Below are positions 6,735 to 31,833 of a stretch of 41,512 bases of DNA, piece after piece; position 1 is the stretch's first letter; each line of letters opens with the position of its first letter. The position numbers and the translations under genes are program-made. The notes beneath the pieces are model-generated. The model did not search any database, was not told the origin of the DNA, and saw only the letters and a program-made list of their open reading frames with translations. This DNA comes from a virus, in the UHGV virus genome UHGV-0155266. One strand, 5' to 3'.

Positions 6735-7403
6735 CCAGAATACCCTACCTATAACATGAATTCTGGCTCGTCTATCTTCAAAGGTGAGTATTTCATCTGG
6801 GTACTCATCTTTGTTGAAGCTTCTAAGAATCAAGCCACCGTCAGGTAAGTTGATAAGTATTTTAACCCTTAGCAATACACCATCTCGTACGGCATAAAGA
6901 TCGCCATCACGAATAGGAACGGTTTGAGAAATATCAACGGCAACAAGATCTCCATTATTGAGAACCGGTAATAAACTGTTCCCCCATATTTTTACGATCT
7001 TGGCATTAGATGCACATACGCCAGATTTTCTCAAATCTGCTCTTCTTAACGGAAACCAGTCAATAGCTGATTCAACTATTTCAGCCAGACATCCGTTACC
7101 TGCCGATAACTCGACATCTAAAACAGGAATGTTTACGAAAATATCGGGGTCTAATGCGGTGCTTTCTGCTTCTTTTACAACAAGATCAGGTATGGATGCG
7201 TTATCTTCAATACCAAGTTGTAACCACTTTTGTGATACACCTAAAACTTTTGCAATTTCTTTAATTTTGCGCGGTTGTAGAGTTTCGCCATTCTCTATTT
7301 TGGCTACAGATTGTTGTGAAAGTCCAATTTTTTCAGCTAGTTGAGCTTGGCTCATGCCAGCTTTCTCTCTACCTATCTTTAATCGTTCTGCCAGTGTTTT
7401 CAC
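6717..7403 (-). CDS. CI-like repressor (HTH_XRE plus S24 LexA-type peptidase)
   Basis: N-terminal HTH (MSQAQLAEKIGLSQQSVAKIENG) and C-terminal S24 autopeptidase region; GTG start at 7403 with GAGAGGG RBS; divergent from cro. Confidence 0.9.
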   Translation of the reverse strand: MKTLAERLKIGREKAGMSQAQLAEKIGLSQQSVAKIENGETLQPRKIKEIAKVLGVSQKWLQLGIEDNASIPDLVVKEAESTALDPDIFVNIPVLDVELSAGNGCLAEIVESAIDWFPLRRADLRKSGVCASNAKIVKIWGNSLLPVLNNGDLVAVDISQTVPIRDGDLYAVRDGVLLRVKILINLPDGGLILRSFNKDEYPDEILTFEDRRARIHVIGRVFWSSRTW

Positions 7404-7538
7404 AACATATCCCTCTCTTTTTTGATGAGGTTACAACTTTATGTTTTAGCTTTCCAACATCTAAAAGTTGTGATAAAAGTTGTTAATGTTGTATTCTTGC
7501 AACTCGTAACAACTTAACTACCAAAAAAGGAGAAAGCT
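7404..7538. promoter_or_regulatory. immunity-region operator/promoter block between cI and cro
   Basis: Five copies of the half-site ACAACTT/AAGTTGT in both orientations (near 7433, 7465, 7477, 7499, 7509) within a 135-bp divergent intergenic region; AAGGAG precedes cro. Confidence 0.6.
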
Positions 7539-7787
7539 ATGACACCTGAGCAATTAGCCTTATCGGAGGCAATCGCTCTGGCTGGTGGTCAATCAGAATT
7601 GGCTCGGAAGCTCACAGCCAGCAGCGGTCATTTAGTAAAGCAACAACATGTCTGGAACTGGTTGAACAGAGAAAAGCGTCCCCCTGCAAAGCTCTCGATA
7701 TTCATTGAAAAGACCACTGGCATATCAAAAGAAAAATTACGTCCAGATATTTTTCAAAAGATTAAAGATTCATCAGATGAAAAGTAA
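7539..7787 (+). CDS. Cro/YdaS-like HTH regulator
   Basis: 82-aa ORF divergent from cI, strong RBS, HTH segment GQSELARKL; position and size fit a Cro-type protein. Confidence 0.75.
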   Translation: MTPEQLALSEAIALAGGQSELARKLTASSGHLVKQQHVWNWLNREKRPPAKLSIFIEKTTGISKEKLRPDIFQKIKDSSDEK

Positions 7788-7809
7788 CCACAGTTTTAAG
7801 GAGATAGCC

Positions 7810-8367
7810 GTGGGTAAGCATCACTGGAAAATAGAAAAACAGCCTGAGTGGTACGTGAAAGCTGTCAGAAAAACTATCGCGGCGTTGCCGGGTGGTTACG
7901 CTGAAGCCGCTGACTGGCTGGATGTAACAGAGAACGCTTTATTCAACCGCCTTCGTGCAGATGGCGATCAGATTTTTCCGCTGGGATGGGCAATGGTTTT
8001 ACAGCGTGCTGGTGGCACTCACTTCATTGCTGATGCTGTGGCGCAGTCTGCAAATGGCGTATTTGTGTCTCTTCCTGACGTCGAGGATGTGGACAACGCC
8101 GATATTAACCAGCGTCTGCTGGAAGTCATTGAACAGATCGGCAGTTATTCAAAACAGATTCGTTCAGCAATCGAAGACGGTGTAGTGGAACCGCATGAGA
8201 AGACAGCAATTAACGACGAGCTGTATCTCTCAATTTCGAAGCTGCAGGAGCATGCAGCACTGGTCTACAAAATCTTTTGCATTTCAGAAAGTAATGACGC
8301 CCGCGAGTGTGCAGCTCCGGGCGTCGTGGCGTCGATTGCTTCTGGTTGTGGAGAAACTAACGCATGA
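7810..8367 (+). CDS. CII/YmfL-like early regulatory protein
   Basis: ORF directly after cro. GTG at 7810 has AAGGAG 7 nt upstream; an in-frame ATG at 7777 is the alternative start. Assignment by position and recalled similarity to e14 ymfL. Confidence 0.5.
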
Positions 8368-14252: not shown

Positions 14253-14783
14253 ATGTTATACCGAGATCTTCTGCCTATTTTCTCAGAAAGAACCATATTT
14301 GAAGCTCCTGAGGCTGAAAGAATACTTCGTGAGCAATATTCTATCATTGCCCCCTCTCCTGTAATTCAGGAGATTTATTATGGATTGGTAGGTGATGACA
14401 GATTTCAGAAGCTTTATGGGGATCTTGATATTGACCAAATTGAATGGAAATTGATTGAACTTCCCACTAAAAACTTTTTAACTATCGGGGATAATGCTAC
14501 TTGCCCTGATTTTTTGCATGAGGTCGTTGAAGATTACATGACCCGTAAAGGTGATGTATTTATGGATGATGAAATAAAAGCGCATTGGTGTAATTTTGGC
14601 ACATGGTGCGAACCACCATTTTTTATAGATCGAGCTTTGCTGAAAAGTAATACAACAGGGCTCCATTTAATGGAAGGGCATACAAGAGTTGGAACCCTGT
14701 TAGGGGCAGTTAAGTATAACTTCGTTAAGCTTGCTAATACTCATAAAATTTATTATGCGCAAGCAAAAGAATGTATTAAATAA
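14253..14783 (+). CDS. hypothetical protein (post-Q moron, AT-rich)
   Basis: 176-aa ORF in the slot directly downstream of Q, followed by its own terminator; AT-rich relative to neighbours; no recognisable motif. Confidence 0.6.
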   Translation: MLYRDLLPIFSERTIFEAPEAERILREQYSIIAPSPVIQEIYYGLVGDDRFQKLYGDLDIDQIEWKLIELPTKNFLTIGDNATCPDFLHEVVEDYMTRKGDVFMDDEIKAHWCNFGTWCEPPFFIDRALLKSNTTGLHLMEGHTRVGTLLGAVKYNFVKLANTHKIYYAQAKECIK

Positions 14784-14940: not shown

Positions 14941-15159
14941 ATGTTAACCAGAAGGGAAAAAGACATGCTAAAACAGCAAGATATGACAGAAACGGCGAAA
15001 GTTGTTTTTAATGAATTAAGCATCGAACCGGCAACAGTCGGGGAGATTGCACAAAACACATACCTTTCACGCGAACGCTGTCAGTTAATACTGACCCAGC
15101 TGGTTATGGCGGGGCTGGCAGATTACCAGTTCGGCTGTTACAGACGCCTTCAGCAATGA
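14941..15159 (+). CDS. small hypothetical protein, possible winged-HTH
   Basis: 72-aa ORF with weak RBS (alternative ATG at 14965 has AAGGGA); segment ATVGEIAQNTYLSRERCQLILTQLVMAGLADY is HTH-like. Confidence 0.4.
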   Translation: MLTRREKDMLKQQDMTETAKVVFNELSIEPATVGEIAQNTYLSRERCQLILTQLVMAGLADYQFGCYRRLQQ

Positions 15160-15308: not shown

Positions 15309-16361
15309 ATGAAAAATACTGTAAAAACAAACAGTGTTGATTTAATCAACGCTGATTGCCTGCATTTTATTCAGTCCCTGCCTGATGATTCCATTGACCT
15401 GATTGTTACCGATCCGCCGTACTTCAAGGTGAAACCCAACGGTTGGGACAATCAGTGGAAAGGGGACGAAGATTACCTTAAGTGGCTGGACCACTGTCTG
15501 GCCCAGTTCTGGCGGGTGTTGAAACCTGCCGGAAGCCTTTACCTGTTCTGTGGGCATCGCCTGGCATCTGATATTGAGATCATGATGCGTGAACGTTTCA
15601 ACGTGCTTAACCATATCATCTGGGCGAAGCCGTCCGGACGTTGGAATGGGTGTAATAAAGAAAGTCTGCGCGCATATTTTCCTGCCACAGAGCGCGTTCT
15701 GTTTGCTGAACATTACCAGGGGCCATATCGCGGCAAAAGTGACGGCTATGCGGCAAAAGAAAGGGAACTCAAACAGCACATAATGGCACCGCTGATATCG
15801 TATTTCAGGGATGCTCGTGCCGAACTGGGTATAACGGCAAAACAAATTGCCGAAGCCACAGGTAAGAAAAATATGGTTTCCCACTGGTTTGGTGCCAGTC
15901 AGTGGCAGTTGCCGAATGAGGCTGACTACCGGAAGTTACAGGCACTGTTTTCCCGTATAGCGGCAGAGAAGTTTCAGGAACAACAACTGGAACAACCACA
16001 CCACCAGTTGGTGGCATCTTATGATTCACTGAATCGCAAATATTCTGAATTGCTGGATGAGTTTAAATCTCTCCGGCGCTATTTCTCCGTATCAGTCTCC
16101 GTGCCTTATACCGATGTCTGGATGCATAAACCCGTTCAGTTCTACCCGGGTAAACATCCGTGTGAGAAACCGGCGGATATGCTCAGGCAAATAATCAATG
16201 CCAGTAGTCGACCCGGCGATCTGGTTGCTGATTTCTTTATGGGATCCGGTTCCACAATAAAAGCAGCAATGGCGCTGGGGCGTCGGGCGTTAGGTGTTGA
16301 GCTTGAGACAGAGCGGTTTAATCAGACGGTGAAAGAGGTAAGTGAACTGGTGGGGAAATAA
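15309..16361 (+). CDS. DNA methyltransferase (amino-methyltransferase, motif IV before motif I)
   Basis: DPPY near the N-terminus (IVTDPPYF) and an FxGxG-like SAM motif near the C-terminus (DFFMGSGST); no adjacent endonuclease gene. Confidence 0.85.
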   Translation: MKNTVKTNSVDLINADCLHFIQSLPDDSIDLIVTDPPYFKVKPNGWDNQWKGDEDYLKWLDHCLAQFWRVLKPAGSLYLFCGHRLASDIEIMMRERFNVLNHIIWAKPSGRWNGCNKESLRAYFPATERVLFAEHYQGPYRGKSDGYAAKERELKQHIMAPLISYFRDARAELGITAKQIAEATGKKNMVSHWFGASQWQLPNEADYRKLQALFSRIAAEKFQEQQLEQPHHQLVASYDSLNRKYSELLDEFKSLRRYFSVSVSVPYTDVWMHKPVQFYPGKHPCEKPADMLRQIINASSRPGDLVADFFMGSGSTIKAAMALGRRALGVELETERFNQTVKEVSELVGK

Positions 16362-17253: not shown

Positions 17254-17629
17254 GCTGACTATCTCTGCTTTCTTCTTTACTGTTATTGGCTCTTTCATCT
17301 GGTCAGCGAATCACTACTACAGCAAATATCAGCACGAAAAGAAACGTGCTGATGAGGCTGTACAAAATGCCAAATCGGCAACTGCCATTACCAATAACGT
17401 CCTGCAATCACTGCAAATCGTCAATACAGTACTGGAGGCTAACCAGCATGCAAAACAGCAGATCGCACTGGAGTCACAGAGAACCCAGGAAGATATCAAA
17501 ATGGCTGTTGCGGATGATGATTGTGCTTCACGTGCTGTGCCTGCTGCCGCTGCTGACCGGTTGCGGAAGTACGCGGACAGTTTACGTGAGCGTTCCGGTG
17601 GCACCACTGCCACCCAGCCTGACTTCTGA
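17237..17629 (+). CDS. Rz-like i-spanin
   Basis: 130-aa ORF overlapping the endolysin 3' end, with N-terminal TM helix and a charged helical periplasmic region. Confidence 0.65.
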   Translation: MKLSYKLTISAFFFTVIGSFIWSANHYYSKYQHEKKRADEAVQNAKSATAITNNVLQSLQIVNTVLEANQHAKQQIALESQRTQEDIKMAVADDDCASRAVPAAAADRLRKYADSLRERSGGTTATQPDF

Positions 17630-17771
17630 TACTCCTGTACCGTTTATACCTAATCCGCTGACGTATGGTGCCAGTCTGGAGCTGAATGTGAGTCTGTTGT
17701 CTGCGCTGGCTAACTGCAATCGGGATAAAGCTGATATTCGTAAAATAGATGCAGAGAGAACTAACCATTAA
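17514..17771 (+). CDS. Rz1-like o-spanin (lipoprotein)
   Basis: ORF in an alternative frame starting inside Rz; signal peptide with lipobox LLTGC and a Pro-rich mature region. Confidence 0.6.
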   Translation: MMIVLHVLCLLPLLTGCGSTRTVYVSVPVAPLPPSLTSDTPVPFIPNPLTYGASLELNVSLLSALANCNRDKADIRKIDAERTNH

Positions 17772-17792
17772 GCAATAAAATTGTCAAATTAA

Positions 17793-18419
17793 TCAGTTGT
17801 CAAATGAATATACGTTAAAGGTATATGTCGACATAATTTCACCAAGTACCTCAATACATACACTTTTTTTATGAAAATTACTGGGAAATGAACTTAGCTC
17901 CTCAAGACATTGCACATAAGTGCTGATATCACTTGCATCACGTTCAAGGAATTTCACTTGACCAAAAGAAGGAGTTTTAATCTTGGTTCTTTGCTGGATT
18001 ATATGGATAAAGTGTGTAGTTGGTGAAACTATTACTCTTGAAATATCGGAAATGATGTCTTCTTGAACTTGCCGATAAAGTAAATCCTTTGGATAATGGT
18101 GTTTTATCTCGATGGTTGCAACATTGCCATTATGTTCAGACGTTAATATCGACTGGTTATAAAGTGATATGTCAACAGCGCCGATACCGAGTTTTGGATG
18201 CTCACTTAAAGCAGTTAGTGTGCTGATTTGATTGAGTATAACAACTAACTCATCACGTATTTGTGTTTCATGTTTGCGATTGTAGAAGTAGCCATTCAGT
18301 TCATTTAACTTTTTATGCATCCTATCGTGACTAATTGCTTCGATCAGTAAATCCTGAATCATACTTTTCTCTAGGTAATCCGAACGGTTGTAAGTGACAG
18401 TATTGTGCTGGCATGTCAT
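17793..18419 (-). CDS. hypothetical protein (208 aa), downstream gene of a minus-strand cassette
   Basis: AT-rich ORF opposite to the flanking lysis and packaging genes; no recognisable motif; weak RBS, so the start is uncertain. Confidence 0.6.
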   Translation of the reverse strand: MTCQHNTVTYNRSDYLEKSMIQDLLIEAISHDRMHKKLNELNGYFYNRKHETQIRDELVVILNQISTLTALSEHPKLGIGAVDISLYNQSILTSEHNGNVATIEIKHHYPKDLLYRQVQEDIISDISRVIVSPTTHFIHIIQQRTKIKTPSFGQVKFLERDASDISTYVQCLEELSSFPSNFHKKSVCIEVLGEIMSTYTFNVYSFDN

Positions 18420-18462
18420 TAATATGTAAAGGTATTGTGAATGCCAGAAAGATAACGAAGTA

Positions 18463-18798
18463 TCATCGATAGAAAAACTTTACAGCCCACTCGTAAACAG
18501 CTTTGTAAATCGGTTCATGGTAAATACTATCGATACTATTCAGATATGCGATCATCGCCTCCACAGTTGTAGTGGTTGTTTCTAATATTTCGATTATTGC
18601 AGGGCGGTCATCATCTTCATCGAAGTATTCGAACAGCAGTACAGGTTTACCATGCAATTCAGCATCTGAGACTCTAAGGTTACAACTACCGCTCAACTCA
18701 AAGTGAATTTTGTAATTACCTTCTACAGAATGGCCTACGGGGAAAAAGTATAGGGTGTCATCTTTGTTCAAAAGCCATGCCCATTCATAACTATTCAT
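18463..18798 (-). CDS. hypothetical acidic protein (111 aa), upstream gene of the minus-strand cassette
   Basis: ATG at 18798 preceded by AGGAG with a 7-nt spacer; the track ORF begins 6 codons earlier; contains an acidic patch (EYFDEDDDRPAIIEILE). Confidence 0.6.
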   Translation of the reverse strand: MNSYEWAWLLNKDDTLYFFPVGHSVEGNYKIHFELSGSCNLRVSDAELHGKPVLLFEYFDEDDDRPAIIEILETTTTTVEAMIAYLNSIDSIYHEPIYKAVYEWAVKFFYR

Positions 18799-18948
18799 TT
18801 GTGAACTCCTGTTCATTGAGTTTCAACAACTATCAACTACATCCAGCGAAGCATAAAAGATCGTTTATGGCAAAACCGGAATGGAGTGCGATTCGATTCT
18901 GAGAAGGGTGCCACGTATCGTACGCGAACCATCCAAGAGGATTATGCA

Positions 18949-19299
18949 ATGCCCCCACGAACCCCAAAAGCCTGCCGCGTTCGCGGCTGCCGCCATACCA
19001 CCACTGACTCGTCAGGCTATTGCGAAAGCCACAAAAGCGAAGGCTGGAAGCAATACAAGCCAGGCCAGTCCCGACACCAGCGCGGTTATGGTTCGAAATG
19101 GGATGTTATCCGTGAACGTGTGCTCAAGCGTGACAAAGGCCTGTGCCAGTTGTGCCTGCGTGCTGGTGTGGTGCGCGAGGCGAAAACCGTTGACCACATC
19201 ATCCCTAAAGCGCATGGCGGCACTGATGCCGACTGTAATCTGCAGAGTCTGTGCTGGCCGTGTCATAAGGCGAAGACGGCCCGTGAACGGTTGAAGTGA
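18949..19299 (+). CDS. HNH endonuclease (packaging-associated)
   Basis: CxxC...HH...CxxCH pattern (CQLCL...VDHIIPKAHGG...CWPCHKAK); lies immediately upstream of the terminase genes, as in HK97-like cos phages. Confidence 0.8.
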   Translation: MPPRTPKACRVRGCRHTTTDSSGYCESHKSEGWKQYKPGQSRHQRGYGSKWDVIRERVLKRDKGLCQLCLRAGVVREAKTVDHIIPKAHGGTDADCNLQSLCWPCHKAKTARERLK

Positions 19300-19386: not shown

Positions 19387-19424
19387 TACCCGCGAAAAAT
19401 GAAATTTAACCAGGAGTGCCGCAT

Positions 19425-19919
19425 ATGGCTGGAACGGCGGGGCGTTCCGGGCGTCGCCCCAAGCCAACGGCGCGCAAGGCGCTGGCCGGAAACCCCGGCA
19501 AGCGAGCCCTGAATAAAGATGAACCTGTTTTTACGCCCATCAAAGGTGTTGAGCCACCGGAGTGGTTCGCTGAAGAAGATCTCCCTCTCGCCACGATCAT
19601 GTGGCAACTGACAACCAAAGAACTCTGCGGTCAGGGCCTGCTGTGCGTGACTGACCTGGCGGTACTTGAGCGGTGGTGCGTGGCCTATGAGTTCTGGCGA
19701 CGTGCCGTGAAAAATATTGCCAGACAGGGCAACACCATCACCGGTGCAATGGGTGGCATGGTCAAAAATCCGGAGCTGACCGCCAAGAAAGAACAGGAGT
19801 CCGAGATGAGCAGCACGGGGGCAATGCTCGGACTCGACCCCAGCAGCCGCCAGCGTCTGATTGGCCTGGCGGGGCAGAAGAAAGCCACTAACCCGTTTCT
19901 GAAAATCATCGAATCATGA
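19425..19919 (+). CDS. terminase small subunit
   Basis: 165-aa ORF directly upstream of and overlapping TerL; basic N-terminus; AGGAG 8 nt before the ATG. Confidence 0.75.
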
Positions 19920-21649
19920 GCCGGAAATCTTACCCCAACGTAAATGCTGCCAATCAGTATGCCCGTGATGTCGTGCGCGGAAAGATTGTGGCCTGCCAGT
20001 TTGTGATTCAGGCCTGCCAGCGCCATCTTGATGACCTGATGGCGGAAAAAAGTAAGTCGTTTCGTTACCGCTTCGACAAGGACCAGGCTGAACGGGCCGC
20101 GAAATTTATTCAGCTGTTGCCGCACACCAAGGGTGAGTGGGCATTCAAACGGATGCCCATCACGCTGGAGCCGTGGCAGCTCTTTGTGATCTGCTGCGCG
20201 TTTGGCTGGGTCAATAAAGGCTCCCGGCTGCGCCGCTTCCGGGAGGTGTATACCGAAATTCCCCGTAAGAACGGCAAATCGGCAATCTCTGCCGGTGTTG
20301 CCCTGTATTGTTTTGCCTGTGATAACGAGTTCGGCGCGGAAGTGTATTCCGGTGCCACGACGGAGAAACAGGCATGGGAAGTCTTTCGTCCGGCACGACT
20401 GATGTGTAAACGCACACCCATGCTGACGGAAGCGTTCGGGATTGAGGTTAACGCCTCAAACATGAACCGTCCGGAGGATGGCGCGCGGTTTGAACCGCTG
20501 ATCGGTAACCCCGGTGATGGATCATCACCCCACTGTGCGGTGGTGGATGAATATCACGAGCACGCCACCGATGCGCTTTACACCACGATGCTTACCGGGA
20601 TGGGGGCGCGACGTCAGCCACTGATGTGGGCCATTACTACTGCCGGGTACAACATTGAGGGGCCGTGCTACGACAAACGGCGGGAAGTTATCGAGATGCT
20701 CAACGGTTCGGTACCCAACGATGAACTGTTCGGGATCATCTATACCGTTGACGAAGGTGACGACTGGACCAACCCACAGGTGCTGGAAAAAGCCAACCCG
20801 AATATCGGGGTGTCGGTTTACCGTGAGTTTTTGTTAAGTCAGCAACAGCGTGCGAAAAATAACGCCCGTCTGGCAAACGTCTTTAAAACAAAACACCTCA
20901 ATATCTGGGTGTCGGCGCGTTCGGCGTATTTCAACCTGGTGAGCTGGCAGAGCTGCGAGGATAAATCACTGACTCTTGAGCAATTCGAGGGGCAGCCGTG
21001 CATTCTGGCCTTTGACCTGGCGCGTAAACTGGATATGAACAGCATGGCGCGACTTTATACCCGCGAGATTGACGGTAAAACGCATTACTACAGTGTGGCC
21101 CCGCGTTTCTGGGTACCGTATGACACGGTGTACAGCGTCGAGAAAAATGAAGATCGCCGGACAGCCGAACGCTTTCAGAAATGGGTGGAAATGGGCGTCC
21201 TGACCGTTACCGATGGTGCAGAGGTGGATTATCGCTACATCCTCGAAGAGGCCAAAGCGGCGAACAAAATCAGCCCGGTCAGCGAGTCACCCATCGACCC
21301 CTTCGGGGCGACCGGGCTGTCACATGACCTTGCTGATGAAGACCTGAATCCCGTCACTATCGTCCAGAACTTCACCAATATGTCCGATCCGATGAAAGAG
21401 CTGGAAGCAGCGATTGAATCGGGACGTTTTCATCATGACGGCAATCCCATCATGACCTGGTGTATCGGCAACGTGGTCGGCAAAAACATGCCGGGTAACG
21501 ATGATGTGGTGAAGCCCGTCAAAGAGCAGGCGGAAAACAAAATTGACGGTGCAGTTGCGCTGATTATGGCGGTTGGCAGAGCCATGCTGTACGAGAAAGA
21601 AGACACGCTGTCTGACCACATTGAGTCCTATGGGATCCGCTCGCTTTAA
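19916..21649 (+). CDS. terminase large subunit
   Basis: 577-aa protein with an N-terminal ATPase region (Walker A-like IPRKNGKS) and C-terminal nuclease region; typical position. Confidence 0.9.
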
Positions 21650-29237: not shown

Positions 29238-29386
29238 CGGCTGAATACCTCACTGATCGCTTCTTTGACTGCGCCAGCTACTGGCGCATTAATCCCTTCG
29301 AATTGCTGAATATGCCGATCAGTGAAATTCCCTTGCTGGTCAGTCAGGCAAACAGGATAGAGCAGGAGAAACGCACACATGGCTGA
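29219..29386 (+). CDS. -1 frameshift extension of the tail assembly chaperone
   Basis: Slippery T_TTT_TTC at 29219-29225; the -1 frame stays open to 29386, overlapping the tape-measure start. Confidence 0.5.
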   Translation, partial: FFPPGLTAEYLTDRFFDCASYWRINPFELLNMPISEIPLLVSQANRIEQEKRTHG

Positions 29387-31211
29387 ATTTGAGCTTAAGG
29401 CGTTGATCACCGGTGTCGACAGGCTTTCTCCCGCGCTGTCGAAAATGCAAAAGAAAATCCGGGGATTTAAACGCCAGGCGGAAGAAGCGTCACAGGGTGG
29501 GCTGGCGCTTGGTGGCGGACTGGCAGCGGGTCTGACGCTTTCCCTGAAATCTTATGCCGATCAGGAAAACGCCGCCACCGGGCTGAAAGTCGCCATGATG
29601 GATGCGAACGGCGAGGTTGGAAAGAGCTTTCAGGACATCAATAAACTGGCTATTGGCCTGGGTAATCAGCTACCCGGTACAACGGCTGATTTCCAGAACA
29701 TGATGCAGATGCTGGTGCGTCGGGGGATCCCGGCAGAAAACATTCTTGGCGGTGTGGGTAAAGCGACAGCTTATCTTGCGGTACAACTGAAAAAAACACC
29801 GGAAGCGGCTGCCGAGTTTGCCGCAAAGATGCAGGATGCTACCGGAACGGCGTCAGAAGACATGATGGGGCTGTTCGACACTATCCAGAAGGCGTTTTAT
29901 CTGGGCGTTGACGATACCAACATGTTGTCCTTCTTCACTAAAACCAGTTCTGTTCTGAAGATGGTGAACAAGGACGGTCTTCAGGCTGCACAGAGCCTTG
30001 CCCCCATCAGCGTCATGATGGATCAGATGGGGATGAACGGGGAGTCGGCAGGTAACGCCCTGCGAAAAGTTATCCAGTCCGGATTAAGCGTTAAGAAAAT
30101 CAGGGACGTCAATAAAATCATGGCCCGCCAGAAACTCGGGGTACAGCTCGATTTTACTGACGGCAAAGGGAGTTTTGGCGGTCTTGATAACATGTTCAGG
30201 CAACTGGCAAAGCTGCGAAAACTGACCGACGTTAAGCGAACAGGCGTACTTAAGGCAATATTTGGTGATGATGCTGAAACCCTTCAGGTGGTCAATGCAC
30301 TAATCGATAAAGGAAAGGATGGCTACGATCAGATCCAGCAGAAGATGAATAAACAGGCCAGCCTGAATAAACGTGTTCAGGCTCAGCTTGGTACGCTGTC
30401 CAACCTGTGGGAGGCAATGACGGGGACCGCAACTAACGGTCTTGCAGCTATTGGCGGCGCATTTTCTGGTGACGCCAAAAATATCACGCAGTGGCTGGGG
30501 GAGTTGGGGGAGAAATTCACGAAGTTTGCGGATGAAAATCCCCGGGTTATTCGCGGCGTCGTCGGGCTTGCTGCCGGTCTTGCGATTCTGAAACTGGGAT
30601 TGATGGGCGTGGGCAGTGCCATCAGTATTGTCAGCAGGATTATGTCGATGACGCCGATTGGCATGATTGCGACGGCGATTGCTCTGGCTGCGGGATTAAT
30701 TATCACTAACTGGGATGTTGTCGGACCTTATTTTAAGAAGCTCTGGGAAACCATTGGTCCTTATTTTGAGGCTGGCTGGGAACTTCTGAAGAAGGTTTTT
30801 GCCTGGTCGCCGCTGGGGATGGTGATCAATAACTGGGGACCGGTTGTTAAGTGGTTTCAGGATATGTGGGATAAGCTGAAGCCAATTATTGAGTGGTTTA
30901 CCGACAGTTCCGGTGACACGGTCGATGCCATTAACTCTGCGCAGTGGGGCGCGGGTGCTTATGATGCTTATGGGACGGGAATACCGGCGCGGGGATACAC
31001 ACCTTATCCGGCGGTAGATCTGGCTCAGTCAAACAACGCCTCCGATGCCACAGGCCCGAATCCCTTCATGATTAACAAAGCTTCTGCGCCAAAAGTTGAT
31101 GGTGAGATCAAGGTATCATTTATAAATATGCCACCAGGTATGCGGGTTACGGAAACACGCTCCAGTGGCATTGATATAAATCACGATGTTGGCTATACCC
31201 GATTTTGGTAG
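29379..31211 (+). CDS. tail tape measure protein
   Basis: 610-aa protein, Ala/Gly-rich with helical and TM segments; directly downstream of the frameshifted chaperone. Confidence 0.85.
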   Translation: MAEFELKALITGVDRLSPALSKMQKKIRGFKRQAEEASQGGLALGGGLAAGLTLSLKSYADQENAATGLKVAMMDANGEVGKSFQDINKLAIGLGNQLPGTTADFQNMMQMLVRRGIPAENILGGVGKATAYLAVQLKKTPEAAAEFAAKMQDATGTASEDMMGLFDTIQKAFYLGVDDTNMLSFFTKTSSVLKMVNKDGLQAAQSLAPISVMMDQMGMNGESAGNALRKVIQSGLSVKKIRDVNKIMARQKLGVQLDFTDGKGSFGGLDNMFRQLAKLRKLTDVKRTGVLKAIFGDDAETLQVVNALIDKGKDGYDQIQQKMNKQASLNKRVQAQLGTLSNLWEAMTGTATNGLAAIGGAFSGDAKNITQWLGELGEKFTKFADENPRVIRGVVGLAAGLAILKLGLMGVGSAISIVSRIMSMTPIGMIATAIALAAGLIITNWDVVGPYFKKLWETIGPYFEAGWELLKKVFAWSPLGMVINNWGPVVKWFQDMWDKLKPIIEWFTDSSGDTVDAINSAQWGAGAYDAYGTGIPARGYTPYPAVDLAQSNNASDATGPNPFMINKASAPKVDGEIKVSFINMPPGMRVTETRSSGIDINHDVGYTRFW

Positions 31212-31302: not shown

Positions 31303-31833
31303 ATGAAAGGCTATATCACAGCAAGTGTAATTCTTGGAGCAGCGGCTGTTTTTTCATCTCTCATAATCTCTGGCAACATCTCCTTTAAAGATGAACATAT
31401 TATTCAGTTATCTGGAGGAGCCATAAAACTTGGTGATGTTTATAAAGAAAATAAATTGATAAGTGCAAAGATTATTTTTCCAGATAATCAGGGTGAACAG
31501 ATTCTTGTTGTCGACGGCAATCCTGAAAACTTTAAGGAGGATTTTCAGGAGAAATTAAATAAAGTAATAAAAACTTTAAATGCGTCAAAGAAAAAAGATG
31601 AAGAGAAAGTTAGCCTGGATAATTTAAGTGTTATTGAAGAGTCTAAACTAGAGCTCGTTTCTGCGGTGCGTTACTCTGCTCAGTATGTTCCTATGTTTAC
31701 TCTGACGCTGGACAAAAAAGAAATTACCATGCCTAAAAATACGGTAATATTTCCATTTGCCAGCGATGAAACAGCTAAGTATTTAAATGAACAACAGCAA
31801 AAGTATAAAGATTCGTTGTTTCTGACTCGCTAA
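31303..31833 (+). CDS. hypothetical secreted/membrane-anchored protein (tail-region moron)
   Basis: 176-aa AT-rich ORF with a signal-peptide-like N-terminus (ITASVILGAAAVFSSLIISG) and its own terminator, inserted between tape measure and baseplate genes. Confidence 0.55.
   Translation: MKGYITASVILGAAAVFSSLIISGNISFKDEHIIQLSGGAIKLGDVYKENKLISAKIIFPDNQGEQILVVDGNPENFKEDFQEKLNKVIKTLNASKKKDEEKVSLDNLSVIEESKLELVSAVRYSAQYVPMFTLTLDKKEITMPKNTVIFPFASDETAKYLNEQQQKYKDSLFLTR

Follow-up and report, generated by a model that had tools for sequence, protein, structure and literature searches.

A predicted stand-alone PD-(D/E)xK nuclease gene stacked with an apparently independent cargo gene at the lysis/packaging junction of an Escherichia coli prophage

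Why does a temperate phage carry two small, AT-rich genes that run against its own late operon, and do the two belong together? This question is raised by the UHGV virus genome UHGV-0155266, a DNA of 41,512 nucleotides (the whole stretch that was analyzed, hereafter the window), which is an e14/SfV-like Escherichia coli temperate prophage. Two co-oriented minus-strand genes lie at 17741-18948, between the Rz1/LysC gene and the HNH-terminase module; one encodes a protein of 189 amino acids (aa) and the other, upstream of it, an acidic protein of 111 aa (Table 1). An earlier note made from the letters of the window had likened the two genes to a toxin-antitoxin or two-component antiphage system. 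Here we arrive, with somewhat better than even confidence, at a different reading, in which the insert holds two independently mobile cargo genes stacked head to tail, and the larger of the two would encode a stand-alone defense nuclease.

The region is a real cargo insert in a lysis/packaging hotspot. Its flanks are conserved and its presence varies at a fixed junction: in an otherwise homologous prophage of E. coli MB10, just 26 bp separate LysC/Rz1 from HNH. Sister prophages hold alternative cargo at the same junction, namely, Iss/Bor (hit H30, at exactly this Rz/HNH junction), DUF2441, DUF6979, DUF6236, DUF2513, or a GrlR-like gene. The base composition of the insert also deviates from its surroundings, with a GC fraction of 0.371, whereas the lysis genes have 0.50 and the late region has 0.556; across the whole window, 4.3% of 1.2-kb windows have a GC fraction equal to or below that of the insert. 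The earlier description of two AT-rich, co-oriented minus-strand genes transcribed against the late operon, in a position of the lambda bor moron type, was therefore accurate.

To characterize the larger protein, we built its family by searching 1.84 billion representative proteins (clusters at 50% identity) exhaustively with a profile, which yielded 42 clusters at E values of ≤0.001. Residues K30, E32, D64, E85, and K87 are invariant across 33 sequences with identities down to 18%, and E54 and P56 are at least 90% conserved in the same sequences and invariant in a 12-sequence alignment. An AlphaFold2 model of the 189-aa protein (predicted local distance difference test [pLDDT], 84; predicted template modeling score [pTM], 0.84) has an alpha-beta-beta-beta-alpha-beta core, the core fold of the PD-(D/E)xK superfamily, and the conserved residues map to helix 29-46 and to strands 50-53, 65-68, and 80-89 of the model. 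In the predicted active site, E32 belongs to the first core helix, D64 is placed at strand 2, and strand 3 carries E85-x-K87, which reproduces on strands 2 and 3 the conserved D...(D/E)-x-K arrangement of the superfamily. Moreover, two distant members of the family (P0079 and P0089) exceed the gathering threshold of Pfam PDDEXK_4, with 24.0 and 24.1 bits against a threshold of 22.3. Other members gave sub-threshold Pfam matches to HSDR_N (twice; best E value, 1.4e-4), PDDEXK_9, and DpnII-MboI, all of which we take to be PD-(D/E)xK nuclease families; unrelated weak matches appeared in the same list.

We regard the PD-(D/E)xK fold and the active-site assignment of the 189-aa protein as well supported, and nuclease activity itself as predicted. 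The protein would represent a small, unannotated family of stand-alone nucleases with a fold like that of type II restriction endonucleases. Thus, the earlier statement that neither protein has a recognizable motif does not hold for the larger one, which carries an invariant PD-(D/E)xK signature. The remote homology searches and structure prediction that the same note proposed gave a nuclease fold for the 189-aa protein and nothing informative for the 111-aa protein.

Annotation resources were otherwise of limited help. In PHROGs, both cassette proteins match only function-unknown families, and PADLOC (matched with PADLOC-DB v2.0.0) returned no model for either of them or for four distant nuclease relatives. 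The nuclease-family profile had no match in the PDB at E values up to 10. Some distant relatives (P0093, P0095, P0096, P0098, and P0104; locus L112) bear a C-terminal DUF6508 domain, and one DUF6508-bearing relative sits on an Acinetobacter baumannii Rep3 plasmid. In the searchable literature, no paper turned up for the accessions, for the PHROG identifiers, or for DUF6508, and the accessions are also missing from the DefensePredictor supplements.

The genomic surroundings of distant relatives point to a role. Seven of ten contexts lie beside known defense or toxin-antitoxin genes. One relative is inside a type I restriction-modification (R-M) island with SMODS/SLATT and AbiE, and another adjoins HsdMS, DUF2441, and GmrSD; three more adjoin DarTG, HipA, and HigBA, respectively, one lies 3 bp upstream of hsdR, and one closely precedes an RNase_T gene and two GmrSD genes. 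Small Rep3 plasmids account for two further contexts of the ten. Taken together, the defense contexts and the prophage hotspot point to a defense role, and the 189-aa protein probably defends the lysogen against other phages. The antiphage function suggested by the earlier note is plausible, though for the nuclease gene alone.

To determine whether the two genes form a pair, we fetched 109 loci that contain a homologue of at least one of the genes and looked in every locus for the other; a profile search of genome contigs with alignment A1 gave 4 loci. Both genes occur together solely in a near-identical E. coli cassette, where identity to the window is at least 95% for each gene. Diverged homologues of the 189-aa gene (49 to 73% identity), found in Yersinia, Citrobacter, Proteus, Enterobacter, Klebsiella, Pectobacterium, and Morganella and in many IMG/VR contigs, are all without the 111-aa gene. 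Conversely, diverged homologues of the 111-aa gene (56 to 73% identity) are all without the 189-aa gene, and the 111-aa gene is solo in 15 loci. The diverged solo homologues of either gene still lie between the lysis genes and terS on the opposite strand, and most of them abut the terS start. In several lineages there is no space for any partner gene, and in two E. coli loci (L039 and L040) no 111-aa gene accompanies a 189-aa gene of 96% identity. In L039, the 111-aa gene is replaced by a 151-aa open reading frame (ORF) with a predicted membrane segment (7369-7824, minus strand), which lies on the late-operon strand.

Thus, two marks of a type II toxin-antitoxin system are lacking: the genes are not co-conserved across lineages, and searches of Pfam, NCBIfam, and PADLOC related neither of them to known toxins or antitoxins. 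With no co-occurrence beyond the cassette of at least 95% identity, a 100-bp gap between the genes, and no family match, the proposed toxin-antitoxin or two-component pair is not sustained, and the toxin-antitoxin label should be dropped unless experiments reveal an interaction.

The 111-aa gene behaves like a separate, independent cargo gene. It is normally found alone, divergent from terS, and judging by the source names and contexts at hand, its family is restricted to a few enterobacterial prophages. The protein matched no Pfam, NCBIfam, or PADLOC model, its family profile gave only noise against the PDB, and its structure model is poor (pLDDT, 58). Upstream of this gene in the window lies ATGGCAAAACCGGA, which is identical to the real terS start lying divergently beside the solo 111-aa homologues; a single copy is present in the window, against 0 expected by chance. 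This fossil appears to be a donor-phage leftover, and the 111-aa gene was presumably brought in along with a scrap of the donor's terS. A weaker, degraded look-alike of a terS start was seen at ∼18375-18405 on the minus strand, upstream of the 189-aa gene, when this region was aligned with the upstream regions of solo homologues. The terS-start fossils suggest that phages swap cargo through recombination at the terS 5′ end, and the simplest history is one in which two separate terS-proximal cargo genes were stacked by recombination. In its present location, the 111-aa protein may be a lineage-specific modulator of the neighboring nuclease.

In the explanation that we favor, transcription of the nuclease gene would run counter to the late operon and would presumably take place in the lysogen. 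Its product would be a metal-dependent endonuclease that cleaves foreign DNA as it enters the cell, thereby shielding the lysogen and, with it, the prophage, and self-DNA would be spared, perhaps by host methylation, by dependence on phage DNA modification, or by a trigger. During the prophage's own lytic growth, Q-antiterminated late transcription would read antisense through the cassette to reach the HNH and terminase genes, and this antisense reading would dampen the cassette. It is reasonable to expect such dampening because late transcription must cross the cassette in antisense, and a parallel has been shown for the defense gene tai in phage phi80 (PMC11364771). We put forward more tentatively, as possible but doubtful, a broader proposal: that the 189-aa protein founds an unrecognized family of single-protein, methylase-less, restriction-like defense nucleases that would tell self from non-self through host housekeeping methylation or phage DNA modification, that temperate phages would swap such genes, together with other cargo, by recombination at the conserved terS 5′ end, and that the 111-aa protein might modulate the nuclease in the E. 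coli lineage.

A nuclease with a restriction-enzyme-like fold could also be the restriction half of a split type II R-M system whose methylase is encoded elsewhere in the prophage. Two candidates are at hand. The first is a 350-aa methylase that sits between Q and the holin gene, 1.4 kb from the nuclease gene, and matches a PADLOC type II methylase model with high significance (Table 1); homologues of it are present in the Citrobacter locus and in three loci at 51 to 53% identity (L059, L060, and L062). The second is a 217-aa N6-adenine methylase in the early region of related prophages. However, the 350-aa methylase is present in only part of a set of otherwise near-identical prophages, and identical nuclease alleles occur both with and without it nearby. 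Nuclease alleles that are 98 to 100% identical are found in prophages that lack it at eight loci (L018, L025, L027, L030, L036, L041, L042, and L053), and within 8 kb, the loci without it showed no amino-methylase motif, bar a small N6-adenine (NPPY-motif) methylase gene, seen in L018. In the complete S56 prophage the sole methylase is the 217-aa protein, annotated as “phage N-6-adenine-methyltransferase.” Outside E. coli, the Enterobacter, Klebsiella-type, and Pectobacterium-type loci and that of Yersinia frederiksenii (L014) show no linked methylase, but a Yersinia enterocolitica locus (L008) does have an unrelated D12-class methylase ∼3 kb off.

On this evidence, we consider a split R-M system very unlikely. 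Membership in type II R-M was rejected, as the linkage of the 350-aa methylase is inconsistent and the nuclease gene has no cognate linked methyltransferase. Because no methyltransferase is consistently linked to the predicted nuclease, self-DNA must be spared in another way.

Another alternative is that the phage uses the nuclease in its own lytic growth, for example, for recombination, for resolving junctions, or for degrading host DNA. Small structure-specific nucleases are common in lambdoid phages, and RusA is already present in this prophage family; further, Hjc resolvases were among the structural matches of the 189-aa protein, and its gene is always near packaging genes. Yet the gene, which is AT-rich, runs antisense to the late operon, and prophages that are otherwise near-identical differ in whether they have it. 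Its distant relatives are found in chromosomal defense islands and on small plasmids, not in phages, and none of the 50,697 deposited phage genomes searched contains the gene. We find a role in the lytic cycle quite unlikely, and a role in defense remains the reading that we prefer.

The nuclease gene is also found in disrupted form. In L111 (E. coli PS1Thumoskin9), an IS3-family element (1783-2945) interrupts the 189-aa gene after approximately codon 38; apart from this insertion, the cassette is 100% identical. The nuclease gene is broken at the same point in L070 to L072, and partial nuclease proteins that end near residue 86 recur in draft assemblies, which hints at a second insertion site. 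Truncated copies of the gene in other assemblies thus break off at two recurrent positions. The 111-aa gene is full length in all cases, including those with a disrupted nuclease gene. Because only the nuclease gene is disrupted while the 111-aa gene stays intact, these cases provide weak evidence that the nuclease is costly to carry.

It is important to note that several observations weigh against reading the insert as two independent genes, one of them a defense nuclease. The 189-aa protein itself matched no model in Pfam, NCBIfam, or PADLOC, and a Foldseek search against viral structures returned nothing at E values of ≤0.001. The association with defense islands is a raw count over ten contexts, with no formal statistic. 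Neither gene was found by megablast and tblastn in the deposited phage genomes, and a consensus scan for promoters and terminators gave no convincing sigma-70 promoter and no terminator for either gene, with a total not above the shuffled expectation. A restriction-like nuclease that has no methylase raises the problem of self-toxicity. Regarding independence, the nuclease gene is present in 80 and the 111-aa gene in 79 of 5,426 complete E. coli genomes (the cassette, in ∼80 of them, is at least 95% identical each time), and because the two are nearly always together there, they may be functionally coupled within the E. coli lineage. Finally, in Enterobacter an unrelated, conserved, mildly acidic ORF of 72 to 75 aa lies ∼90 bp upstream of the nuclease homologue.

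The last two observations are also what would be expected if the genes were a functional pair in the E. coli lineage, with the 111-aa protein as an inhibitor, antitoxin, or regulator and the nuclease released on infection, in the manner of nuclease-immunity pairs or of type II toxin-antitoxin systems. Two genes on the same strand with the small acidic one upstream would suit such a pair, and insertion elements strike only the nuclease gene, as expected of a toxic partner. Nevertheless, the co-occurrence is confined to one lineage of at least 95% identity, while solo nuclease genes with an intact catalytic motif are found in at least six other genera as well as in E. coli L039 and L040, and the 15 loci with the 111-aa gene alone show the converse. 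The 100-bp gap between the genes could hold an internal promoter, neither protein is like any toxin-antitoxin or immunity family, and the terS fossil before the 111-aa gene, together with the weaker one before the nuclease gene, points to two separate acquisitions. We therefore judge a functional pair to be rather unlikely and retain the reading of two independently acquired genes.

The gene models were revised in part. The longest minus-strand ORFs are 17793..18419 (208 aa) and 18463..18816/18798 (117/111 aa). The earlier note took the downstream protein to be 208 aa, but all homologues, PGAP, and phrog_12494 give 189 aa, with the start at the internal ATG at 18362. The 19 added codons of the longer call are much more poorly conserved, with 4 of 19 residues changed versus 96% identity in the gene body, and they overlap an apparently noncoding remnant. 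For the upstream gene, every homologue begins at the ATG at 18798, and the description of its product as an acidic protein with a strong ribosome-binding site was correct (isoelectric point, 4.5; net charge, −11; Shine-Dalgarno sequence in Table 1). A sigma-70-like site (18430-18402; TTTACA-17-CACAAT) matches the consensus at 9 of 12 positions, which is not above the shuffled expectation.

The ratio of nonsynonymous to synonymous substitution rates (dN/dS) of the nuclease gene is 0.10 to 0.19. When either gene is compared with homologues from other genera, dS is saturated and dN is ∼0.2 to 0.5, with the smallest values for the nearest genera. Because dN/dS is well below 1, both are real genes under purifying selection rather than chance ORFs.

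TABLE 1 Coordinates of the insert, its flanks, and related features (positions in the window unless a locus is named)
Feature	Coordinates	Strand	Basis or remark
350-aa N6/N4 DNA methyltransferase	15309-16361	+	PF01555; PADLOC MTase_II PDLC03265, E 6e-152
LysC (Rz1-like), left flank	17514..17771	+	PGAP annotation of the UPEC_U013 prophage, 99.8% identical
Variable cargo region	17741..18948		Homology to the E. coli MB10 empty-site prophage breaks at 17740 and restarts at 18949
189-aa gene (WP_000613842-like, phrog_12494)	17793..18362	-	Stand-alone protein, predicted PD-(D/E)xK fold
Predicted catalytic-core codons	18102..18275	-	K30 18275-18273, E32 18269-18267, E54 18203-18201, D64 18173-18171, E85 18110-18108, K87 18104-18102
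100-bp intergenic spacer	18363..18462	-	Holds the 19 spurious codons, a weak sigma-70-like site, and a possible degraded terS-start remnant
111-aa gene (WP_001089763-like, phrog_14397)	18463..18798	-	Acidic protein
Shine-Dalgarno sequence AGGAG	18806..18810	-	7 nt 5′ of the ATG of the 111-aa gene; direct sequence reading
Putative fossil 5′ end of Terminase_2-type terS, ATGGCAAAACCGGA	18867..18880	+	Encodes MAKP..; upstream of the 111-aa gene
HNH endonuclease (packaging module), right flank	18949..19299	+	PF01844, E 5e-15
P27-type terS	19416-19919		Downstream of HNH; PF05119, E 2e-21
terL	19916-21649		After terS; UPEC_U013 annotation
Enterobacter small ORF	L003 5683-5910	+	Same gene in L004-L006 and L069; L002/L007, 5692-5910

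Along the window, the integrase is followed by early genes, Q, the lysis cassette, HNH, P27-type terS, terL, the HK97-type head, and the contractile Mu-like tail, and a 99.8%-identical copy of the prophage in UPEC_U013 adjoins tRNA-Thr/proA. The stop codon of LysC is 21 bp from the convergent stop codon of the nuclease gene. An Rfam scan of 17500-19100 found no RNA family, and a search of a plasmid collection gave one partial match, from E. coli.

Several known systems share features with the cassette. The 189-aa protein is of a size with the EcoRV-like type II restriction endonucleases (SwaI, 5tgq; BglI, 1dmu; EcoRV, 1eo3; HincII, 3ebc; ∼190 to 250 aa), and it shares with them the catalytic D...ExK on strands 2 and 3 and an acidic residue on the preceding helix; the catalytic residues of EcoRV are E45, D74, D90, and K92. 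In contrast to this group, it has no detectable sequence similarity, no linked methyltransferase, and the setting of a solitary prophage cargo gene. Shedu SduA, NucC, and Mrr-type type IV enzymes belong to the same nuclease superfamily and occupy the same defense-island neighborhoods as the 189-aa family, but the 189-aa protein is far smaller, has no sensor or reader domain, and lacks a PADLOC match, and in the prophage loci examined no cyclase or other signaling gene adjoins the nuclease gene. Type II toxin-antitoxin systems have the same arrangement of a small acidic gene upstream of a larger same-strand gene, whereas the cassette differs in its lack of cross-lineage co-occurrence, its 100-bp spacing, and its lack of family homology. 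The lambda bor and E. coli iss morons occupy the same type of locus as accessory late-region cargo. Bor and Iss are outer-membrane lipoproteins for serum resistance; unlike them, the cassette proteins are cytoplasmic, one has a predicted nuclease fold, and both are unrelated to them in sequence.

Tai of phi80 is a validated single-gene defense at the same site and in the same orientation (He et al. 2024, PMC11364771). Like the nuclease gene, the Tai/Ati system (phi80 orf63/orf64) comprises one defense gene of similar size (Tai, 204 aa), and like the cassette, this defense gene is found between the lysis and packaging genes on the strand opposite to the late operon. When the phi80 defense gene becomes costly, it is inactivated by insertion elements (PMC11364771), which is comparable to the IS3 insertion in the nuclease gene described above. 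Tai differs in that it blocks tail assembly and is not a nuclease, and the phi80 counterdefense gene is on the late strand, whereas both cassette genes here share one strand. Homology between the two systems was rejected (BLASTP E value, 24; hhalign probability, 0.6% for the nuclease versus orf63 and 0.2% for the 111-aa protein versus orf64).

If the 189-aa protein is truly an active defense nuclease, it would add to the antiphage repertoire a compact single-gene family that is absent from Pfam, NCBIfam, and PADLOC, and it would pose the question of how a restriction-enzyme-like nuclease without a linked methylase avoids cutting its host. The lysis/terS junction of enterobacterial temperate phages is a practical place to seek defense genes, alongside the validated Tai, and the terS-start fossils suggest a route by which cargo may be transferred between unrelated phages. 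A smaller gain lies in annotation, where two “hypothetical proteins” carried by ∼1.5% of complete E. coli genomes can be redescribed and the toxin-antitoxin label avoided.

Other candidate cargo was seen alongside. DUF2441 appeared twice, once as cargo at the same E. coli junction (hit H28) and once beside a distant nuclease relative in a type I R-M/GmrSD island (L114 9400-10104), and it may be a defense gene itself. Elsewhere in the window, an AT-rich ORF (31303-31833, plus strand; GC, ∼0.33) encodes a 176-aa protein with an N-terminal hydrophobic segment (phrog_5485, function unknown). It is flanked by the tape-measure gene (29379-31211) and the DNA-circularization gene (from 31895), a position that we take to be that of the HK97 gp15 superinfection-exclusion moron, and it is missing in the UPEC_U013 prophage. 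A second AT-rich island (GC, 0.35 to 0.38) directly follows the Q antiterminator gene and holds two plus-strand ORFs, 14253-14783 (176 aa; phrog_8867, function unknown; no Pfam or PADLOC match) and 14941-15159 (72 aa; weak winged-helix matches). In related prophages, this slot past Q is occupied by different genes on the opposite strand.

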